A DNA stretch of 33,804 nucleotides from Escherichia phage 899, in the sequence record PV533660.1; one strand, 5' to 3'. The translations under genes were made by a program, and so were the position numbers. This document shows positions 16,774 to 17,009 of this stretch, piece after piece (the first letter of the stretch is position 1; the number at the start of each line of letters is the position of its first letter). Below the pieces are notes generated by a model. That model did not search any database, had not been told where the DNA came from, and saw nothing but the letters and a program-made list of their open reading frames with translations.

Positions 16774-17009
16774 TGGTCGATGTGGACGCTATGTGGACAG
16801 TGGTTGATATAAATCCATTTATATCATCAGGTTAGGTGCTTTTTTGTGACACCATCCCTGTCTTCCCCCACATGATGTGGGGGTTTTTTTTATCAATCAC
16901 TTACATCAGTTTCCGTAAGAAAACAGTAACTTAAGAAAACCTATAAGGGACTGGAAGGGCTACAAAGTTCTGAGAGTGTGGACACTATGTGGACACTCAG
17001 AAGGGAAAT
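16774..17009. other. attP-like region (Int arm-type repeats flanking a hairpin/T-run core candidate)
   Basis: Direct repeats of TGTGGAC(A) at 16781-16787, 16792-16799, 16977-16984 and 16988-16995; central CCCCCACA-TGA-TGTGGGGG hairpin plus T8 (16865-16891); lies immediately beyond the 3' end of int. Confidence 0.5.

Follow-up and report, generated by a model that had tools for sequence, protein, structure and literature searches.

A phage attachment region with a core that matches the 3' part of CpxQ, a small RNA of the host

Organization of the ogr-int region

Escherichia phage 899 is represented here by a sequence of 33,804 nucleotides (PV533660.1; the whole stretch is called the window), in which a short spacer at 16774-17009 lies between ogr and the integrase gene int. 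Around the spacer, the genes are arranged as gpD, ogr, the spacer itself, int and C (both on the minus strand) and cox, and Pfam assigns Ogr_Delta, Int_N with Phage_integrase, HTH_3 and Phage_Cox domains across the locus. Together, the open reading frame map and the Pfam assignments place the spacer where the phage attachment site (attP) is annotated in P2, between ogr and the 3' end of int. Over 351 nucleotides around the spacer, the sequence has 100% identity with Yersinia phage GMG73 (OP880301.3) and 99.1% with coliphage WPhi; the three differences from WPhi, two in the ogr terminator and one in a stretch between sites, leave the arms, core and repeats unchanged.

The region is very probably the intact attP of a WPhi-type P2-like phage, a lambda-style site for a heterobivalent tyrosine integrase (Int). 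The direct observations are its repeats, the identity of its core with host DNA, the junctions of prophages, the surrounding genes and a homology to sites that are annotated in P2. The WPhi attP, the P2-type arm consensus and the chromosomal site between cpxP and fieF are already published, and the present analysis adds two small refinements, namely the identity of the core as part of the small RNA (sRNA) CpxQ and the interval of strand exchange.

Paired arm-type repeats

TGTGGAC occurs on the plus strand of the spacer at 16781, 16792, 16977 and 16988, which accounts for four of its six matches in the 33.8-kb window. Counting both strands of the whole window, 4.3 matches would be expected, and from this expectation the Poisson probability of four falling within about 236 nucleotides is about 3e-8. 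The copies form two 19-nucleotide units, TGTGGACGCTATGTGGACA (16781-16799) and TGTGGACACTATGTGGACA (16977-16995), which are 95% identical, lie 196 bp apart and have a start-to-start spacing of 11 bp within each pair. The composite TGTGGAC-N4-TGTGGAC is found at two places only in the window (0.16 expected when two mismatches are allowed). An earlier reading made from the sequence alone (the sequence-only reading) had described two TGTGGAC(A) pairs, 11 bp apart within and about 195 bp between, directly past the 3' end of int, and it was right on each count; the int stop codon (17010-17012, minus strand) lies 14 nucleotides beyond the second pair.

Both units align base for base with the protein_bind features annotated as the Int P arm and Int P' arm of P2 (NC_001895), where their counterparts are TGTGGTCaatgTGTGGAC and TGTGGACactgTGTGGACA. 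The P-arm pair of the window, TGTGGACgctaTGTGGACA, occupies 16781-16799 and the P'-arm pair, TGTGGACactaTGTGGACA, occupies 16977-16995, both on the plus strand. They match the arm consensus tgTGGaCa, with two direct copies flanking the core on each side. A comparison of P2-like phages gives this consensus for the P2 group and attributes arm recognition to the N-terminal domain of Int (PMC3448106). The first 55 residues of the window Int, its arm-binding N-terminus, are 69% identical to those of P2 Int, which is consistent with common TGTGGAC arm sites.

Additionally, prophages of Yokenella, Kosakonia and Serratia (Int 71-88% identical) keep the arm repeats as the clearest conserved islands in arms that have otherwise diverged. 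A block GTCGATGTGG(A/T)C-N4-TGTGGAC persists in their P arms, and the repeat pair is the best-conserved block among their P' arms. Alignment to the P2 features, agreement with the published consensus and the presence of a core between the pairs support the proposal that the repeats are Int arm sites flanking a core.

The core and its chromosomal target

Between the arms lies a 47-bp common sequence, GACACCATCCCTGTCTTCCCCCACATGATGTGGGGGTTTTTTTTATC (16848-16894, plus strand), which is identical to the bacterial attachment site (attB) of E. coli between cpxP and fieF. The core is matched at 100% identity in E. coli chromosomes that lack the phage arms, and the left arm with core and the core with right arm occur separately in E. 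coli genomes. An alignment of attP, the empty site, and the cpxP-side and fieF-side junctions shows a common block of exactly 47 bp with mismatches at both edges. The empty site starts 23 nucleotides after the cpxP stop codon, and lysogens have the order cpxP, core, P' arm, int ... ogr, P arm, core, fieF. Both junctions, attL (cpxP-core-P'-int) and attR (ogr-P-core-fieF), were recovered in E. coli, including the two ends of one complete prophage.

Among 5,426 complete E. coli genomes searched, the cpxP-side flank is joined to the core in all 5,426, a WPhi-type attL is present in 262, and an attR-type junction is present in 790 (14.6%), which makes this a heavily used site. The genome search and the inspection of junctions, both suggested by the sequence-only reading, thus locate attB at the cpxP-fieF site of E. 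coli and find a host-matching core at attL and attR in E. coli. The E. coli W genome lists prophage Wphi1 between cpxP and fieF (PMC3032704), and Int-dependent recombination of WPhi with attB is reported as done by a secondary source (PMC5009727).

The integrase sequence agrees with this target. The window Int differs from WPhi Int at two amino acids, and is 52% identical to P2 Int overall; the core-binding and catalytic domains reach 37% and 55%, respectively, and conserved catalytic motifs align. The core-binding domain is 59-84% identical to those of Ints from other prophages at the cpxP site. The expectation that an integrase unlike P2 Int would use a different attB is accordingly upheld. 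The gene itself (17010-17990, minus strand; Pfam Int_N and Phage_integrase) is given the start used in the WPhi annotation: the longest open reading frame starts at 18020 (336 amino acids), and the WPhi and RefSeq annotations, together with the alignment to P2 Int, start at 17990 (326 amino acids, MSIKKLDDGRY).

P2-like prophages occupy the same site in at least eight other enterobacterial genera and use two arm-site dialects, TGTGGAC and TGTAGAC. Members of the second group have TGTAGAC/TGTAGTC arm repeats in the same paired 11-bp layout around the same core, and are found in seven genome contigs, including those of Citrobacter amalonaticus, Rosenbergiella gaditana, Tatumella terrea and R. 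metrosideri, as well as in IMG/VR loci. The IMG/VR junctions comprise 12 attR, 7 attL and 3 attP of the TGTAGAC type and 43, 16 and 4 of the TGTGGAC type. The Int N-termini of the TGTAGAC type change KKLDDGRY to KKLEGGQY and DIRP to DV(W/Y)P, a natural covariation of arm site with arm-binding domain. Hybrid junctions also occur, in which a TGTAGAC-type P arm and core are followed by a P' arm of the TGTGGAC type (Kosakonia oryziphila, position 5563) or by a WPhi-like one (Salmonella enterica); they imply two different P2-like prophages in tandem at one site.

Smaller elements of 1.2-4.5 kb lie between two core copies in R. gaditana, T. terrea, R. metrosideri and C. amalonaticus. They have recognisable P and P' arms with a truncated int or none, and look like decayed prophage remnants that keep both junctions. 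A contig labelled Chryseobacterium sp. 18061 (Bacteroidota) has a cpxP/CpxQ 3' end of enterobacterial type, a sign of contamination or of an assembly under the wrong label.

The core as the 3' end of CpxQ

The core contains a perfect 9-bp inverted repeat, CCCCCACAT/ATGTGGGGG (16865-16883), followed by T8 (16884-16891), exactly where the sequence-only reading had placed a hairpin with a T-run. The hairpin and T8 score as an intrinsic terminator on the plus strand, and the 47-nucleotide core folds with -16.5 kcal/mol (z = -2.65). This element (16865-16891, plus strand; 9-bp stem, 1-nucleotide spacer, T8) is a copy of the Rho-independent terminator of cpxP/CpxQ, identical to the E. coli sequence 23-70 nucleotides downstream of the cpxP stop codon. 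Across Enterobacterales, the terminator stem shows compensatory changes.

CpxQ is a 58-nucleotide Hfq-dependent sRNA that RNase E releases from the cpxP 3' untranslated region (UTR) (PMC6755755; PMC9438474; PMC4817254). Its 3' end is the cpxP terminator, and it takes up nearly all of the 3' UTR (PMC6755755; PMC9438474). When the CpxQ 5' end is set by counting back 58 nucleotides from the T-run, the core corresponds to about nucleotides 15-58 of CpxQ (~44 nucleotides) plus 3 nucleotides. The complete sRNA is not in the phage copy: the 14 nucleotides upstream differ (attP ggtgcttttttgt versus host ttttccttgccata), and the first ~14 nucleotides of CpxQ, with the 5' seed, remain in the host flank. 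For nhaB and cfa, CpxQ uses this 5' end as its seed (PMC6755755). By gene context and literature, the core is therefore the 3' two-thirds of a host sRNA, including its terminator.

Rfam searches of the window and of the E. coli attB locus returned no family at the gathering threshold, so the identity as CpxQ rests on gene context and literature. Under permissive settings, the only notable Rfam match was RF02628 (Hrs1, Hfq-regulated sRNA 1), below threshold and on the antisense strand of CpxQ. Against the minus strand of the E. coli cpxP 3' UTR, this model scores 44.5 bits (E = 8.5e-8; gathering score 56.4), and Hrs1 may be a CpxQ homologue entered in the opposite orientation. No link between CpxQ and a phage attachment site was found in the literature searched, which for prophage papers comprised titles and abstracts. 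CpxQ, by now a well-studied sRNA of the envelope-stress response, was first described only in 2016, after the attachment site had been mapped.

Since the core copies the CpxQ 3' end with its terminator, the cpxP/CpxQ gene is whole after insertion. The suggestion that the hairpin and T-run copy the 3' end of a host gene, for example an sRNA gene, that is restored on integration is thus supported: the terminator is that of cpxP/CpxQ, and at the cpxP-side junction the gene is complete.

Read on the minus strand, the core (16848-16894) has its T/A run before the hairpin, so it provides no terminator in the direction of int. Transcripts from int reach the bidirectional ogr terminator when the phage is free; in a prophage they would continue antisense into CpxQ and cpxP, and the mRNA would therefore have different 3' ends in the two states.

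A probable strand-exchange interval

Junctions in related lysogens place the exchange most likely at core positions 3-22 (16850-16869, plus strand, by homology), upstream of the variable part of the stem. A central 20-mer of the core, scanned in one genome per species, occurs in more than 30 enterobacterial genera and at no fewer than 120 genome loci among the matches listed. Several of these loci are junctions of prophages and have homologues of Int, C and Cox next to them. In Serratia proteamaculans CCUG 14510, the cpxP-side flank is identical to those of two empty-site relatives at 196-197 of 200 positions, and attL is phage-type from core position 23 (stem TCATGATGA, ATC, P' arm) rather than host-type (GCCATGATGGC). 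In Citrobacter sp. NCU1, the same P arm (90/90) is joined to two different stems: to TCATGATGA in a P-core-P' junction, and to ACATGATGT, which is typical of Citrobacter, in the junction on the fieF side (attR).

The stem thus segregates with the right-hand flank, which puts the exchange to the left of core position 23. On the left, fieF-side junctions carry phage-specific bases at core positions 1-2, with AA, TT, AT or CG instead of GA. Lysogens of Kosakonia arachidis, Pseudocitrobacter vendiensis and Citrobacter amalonaticus agree with exchange at positions 3-22. Exchange at that place, upstream of the stem's variable bases, would leave cpxP with the phage copy of the terminator. The view of the hairpin as a copy from the host stands, with the refinement that the exchange itself most likely falls upstream of the hairpin's variable part and not within it.

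The fold also shows a GACA-N7-TGTC dyad at 16848-16862, with GACA at 16848-16851, CCATCCC between, and TGTC at 16859-16862. Its two halves are candidate core-type sites, with the 7 bp between them as the overlap.

Several points qualify this placement of the exchange and the use of the site in every host. The interval is drawn from related prophages (Int 65-88% identical) and not from the window phage, and the search pattern held positions 3-22 invariant, so that variation within the interval could not show. E. coli lysogen OkiPb01690 has unequal cores, G4T9 at attL and G5T8 at attR, which fit the model and do not discriminate. Likewise, the junctions of Rosenbergiella metrosideri are ambiguous, and host stems vary within that genus. 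As to use, phage L-413C has the WPhi core, and a matching attB was not found in sequenced Yersinia (PMC3448106); Yersinia pestis was the isolation host of GMG73, and the site may go unused there.

Predicted IHF and Cox sites

The P arm contains a predicted binding region for IHF at 16808-16841, which aligns to the IHF protein_bind feature of P2. Its element TATCATCAGGTTA (16822-16834) has one mismatch to WATCAANNNNTTR, and a block AAATCCnTTTATnTCA of the region is kept in diverged prophage arms. A predicted second, H'-like site, TATCAATCACTTA (16891-16903, plus strand), straddles the boundary between core and P' arm and is one of three perfect matches to WATCAANNNNTTR in the window. The corresponding WATCARNNNNTTR is present in 32 of 35 P' arms from IMG/VR contigs and is conserved in P' arms across genera; the match is absent from P2. 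IHF may bind here as well.

Two 9-bp direct repeats, TAAGAAAAC (16916-16924 and 16932-16940, plus strand), occupy a position equivalent to the Cox protein_bind feature of P2. The repeat region is partly conserved in related arms as AAAACA-N3-ACTTA, and TAAGAAAAC is not enriched elsewhere in the window and is absent from the Pe-Pc region. Adjoining these repeats is a predicted Cox site at 16940-16963 (plus strand), consisting of CCTATAAGGGAC and a weaker adjacent copy; the site shares 11 of 12 bases with the Pe-Pc repeat CCTAGAAGGGAC. WPhi Cox reportedly binds a 12-nucleotide direct repeat in Pe-Pc (PMC5009727). Allowing at most one mismatch, the 12-mer has only three matches in the window: CCTAGAAGGGAC itself (18452-18463), a second copy at 18432-18443, and the attP copy at 16940-16951. 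For WPhi, Ahlgren-Berg et al. (2009) reportedly describe a 47-nucleotide core and an attP 9-bp repeat sharing 5 bp with the Pe-Pc repeat.

The gene for the presumed ligand, cox (18506-18778, plus strand), encodes an excision directionality factor and Pc repressor that acts on attP/attL; it matches Pfam Phage_Cox with E = 9e-24 and is annotated in WPhi. In the Pe-Pc switch region, the 12-nucleotide repeats CCTAGAAAGGAC (18432-18443) and CCTAGAAGGGAC are the predicted Cox sites, and the direct repeats TATTGGTGAC at 18366-18375 and 18400-18409 are probable operators of the C repressor.

Alternative explanations

It is extremely improbable that the TGTGGAC repeats are operators of a regulator, C repressor or Cox, instead of Int arm sites. 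C repressors and Cox proteins of the P2 family both bind direct repeats (PMC1904268; PMC3936717), but the TGTGGAC repeats align with sites annotated as Int-bound in P2, and the C-operator-like repeats (TATTGGTGAC) and Cox-type 12-mers sit elsewhere, in Pe-Pc. Moreover, P2 and WPhi differ in C and Cox specificity and have TGTGGAC in common, which matches their conserved Int N-termini. The hairpin admits two further explanations. It could serve mainly as a terminator, a backstop behind the ogr terminator against late transcription running antisense into int, with its host identity secondary. In keeping with this, it scores as a plus-strand terminator about 100 nucleotides downstream of the ogr terminator, which has a weaker T-tract and the same orientation. 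A terminator role could, however, be an added benefit that leaves the sequence unexplained; P2 has the same gene layout and no second terminator there, and the 47/47 chromosome identity together with the prophage junctions assigns the hairpin to the recombining core. We regard a mainly terminating role as improbable. Equally unlikely to hold is the proposal that the 9-bp dyad CCCCCACAT/ATGTGGGGG represents two inverted core-type Int sites with exchange in the stem-loop. The dyad is the only perfect inverted repeat in the core, and cores of tyrosine recombinases typically have inverted repeats around a 6-8 bp overlap; its arms, however, are separated by 1 nucleotide only, and its bases vary freely by compensatory change in hosts and phages while positions 3-22 stay constant. 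As a crossover site it was rejected on the S. proteamaculans attL and the Citrobacter sp. NCU1 attR, where the stem is phage-type beside P' and host-type beside B'.

The remaining alternative concerns use of the site in one host and not the identity of the element. If Y. pestis has no usable attB, GMG73 might be a lytic or secondary-site phage there, and an intact site inherited from an E. coli phage lineage would lie idle. Besides the report that sequenced Yersinia have no attB matching the WPhi core of L-413C (PMC3448106), no Yersinia contig appears among the at least 120 listed loci with the core 20-mer, an absence that does not amount to true absence from the genus; the 20-mer is also present in other Yersiniaceae, namely Serratia and Rahnella. 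An idle site in Y. pestis is a tentative possibility, on balance unlikely, and it leaves the identification of the region as an intact WPhi-type attP unaffected.

Comparison with other attachment systems

The annotation of P2 (NC_001895) runs ogr terminator, Int P arm, IHF, Int core, Cox region and Int P' arm, and the window has the same order of elements between ogr and int. Arm-site sequence, 11-bp spacing, ogr terminator and IHF region are conserved between the two phages, whereas the core and Cox region are unrelated. The P2 core is 27 bp and belongs to a different chromosomal site; that of the window is 47 bp of CpxQ. The Int N-terminal domains are similar, the core-binding domains are the 37% identical part noted above, and the Cox recognition sequences differ. 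The P' arm lies outside the int coding sequence in the window phage and overlaps int in P2, and the possible extra IHF site at the core/P' boundary is found in the window phage and not in P2. Compared with WPhi (Ahlgren-Berg et al. 2009; Nilsson et al. 2011), attP and attB are essentially the same in sequence and use the same chromosomal cpxP-fieF site. No functional difference from WPhi is apparent; what differs is the carrier, GMG73 being a Yersinia pestis isolate.

The attP of lambda combines a heterobivalent Int, arm sites flanking the core, bending by IHF and a directionality factor on one arm. Relative to lambda, the window has two arm sites per arm, all in one orientation, a much longer common core, and Cox in place of Xis, with Cox also acting as a lytic-switch repressor. 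Integrases that target tRNA or transfer-messenger RNA (tmRNA) genes offer another parallel, as in 186 (tRNA-Ile), HP1 (tRNA-Leu), and Fels-2 and SopEPhi (ssrA), whose attP likewise carries the 3' end of an RNA gene that is structured and highly conserved. Such a copy regenerates the gene on integration (PMC3448106). The target of the window phage differs in being a 3'-UTR-derived Hfq-dependent sRNA and mRNA terminator instead of a tRNA-like gene, and its arm sites are P2-like, not 186-like. P2-like prophages are also known at the ends of the sRNA genes cyaR/ryeE and rybB, and of ryeB in Salmonella (PMC3032704; PMC3603311); the window phage uses a different sRNA, CpxQ.

The left boundary of attP is the Rho-independent terminator of ogr and the late operon (16743-16772, stem 16748-16767), a bidirectional hairpin that is terminator-like on both strands and aligns to the terminator of P2 NC_001895. 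In the related Yersinia phages GMS190 (371-880) and P37 (380-887), an insertion of ~510 bp occupies the gap between this terminator and the P arm (window 16768/16776). It carries a minus-strand open reading frame (408 nucleotides as annotated in P37) and leaves attP intact, and the point of insertion resembles a hotspot for morons. A ~80% match to window positions 16748-16827, which cover the ogr terminator and P arm, is present at a second place in many E. coli genomes, K-12-type strains among them; it is probably the ogrK/P2 remnant, whose junction still has a P arm.

A proposed mechanism and its implications

From these data we infer which protein binds where, which sites belong to IHF and to Cox, and the exact interval of exchange, and a working scheme can be built on this. 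The N-terminal domain of Int would bind the two TGTGGAC(A) pairs, whose sites lie one helical turn apart within a pair, and the central and catalytic domains would bind the core. IHF would bend the P arm at about 16808-16841, and perhaps also the DNA at 16891-16903, so that arm-bound Int bridges to the core. By recombining with attB, the identical 47 bp downstream of cpxP, the phage would then enter the chromosome between cpxP and fieF. Cox, acting between core and P' arm (~16916-16963), would block integration and promote excision. Under this scheme, the phage copy of the terminator would become the 3' end of cpxP/CpxQ, and the host copy would end up at the fieF-side junction downstream of ogr.

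One extension, which we consider very unlikely, is that the phage-borne CpxQ 3' module is not neutral and could let a common prophage tune the Cpx envelope-stress response. The evidence is anatomical. At the cpxP junction, the terminator and the Hfq-binding 3' part of CpxQ come from the phage, and stems differ between phages and hosts, so lysogens of some species carry a chimeric CpxQ; a chimera of host 5' seed and phage stem-loop is seen in the Serratia proteamaculans lysogen. Downstream of ogr, both the fieF-side junction and the free phage contain a second, partial CpxQ copy that lacks a promoter. If this extension were true, read-through from ogr or from the late operon could release a CpxQ-like RNA of ~44 nucleotides that competes for Hfq or for targets of the conserved internal region, C-int transcripts of the prophage, lacking a terminator, would run antisense into CpxQ, and by any of these routes a prophage in about 15% of complete E. 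coli genomes could tune the Cpx response.

As an attP, the region matters little, since its site, consensus and location are known and this copy is 99% identical to WPhi. The apparent replacement of the cpxP/CpxQ terminator by the phage would be relevant to studies of CpxQ in natural isolates, and with CpxQ as an attB, the genes that serve phages as anchors (tRNA, tmRNA and sRNA genes) come to include that of an sRNA derived from a 3' UTR.

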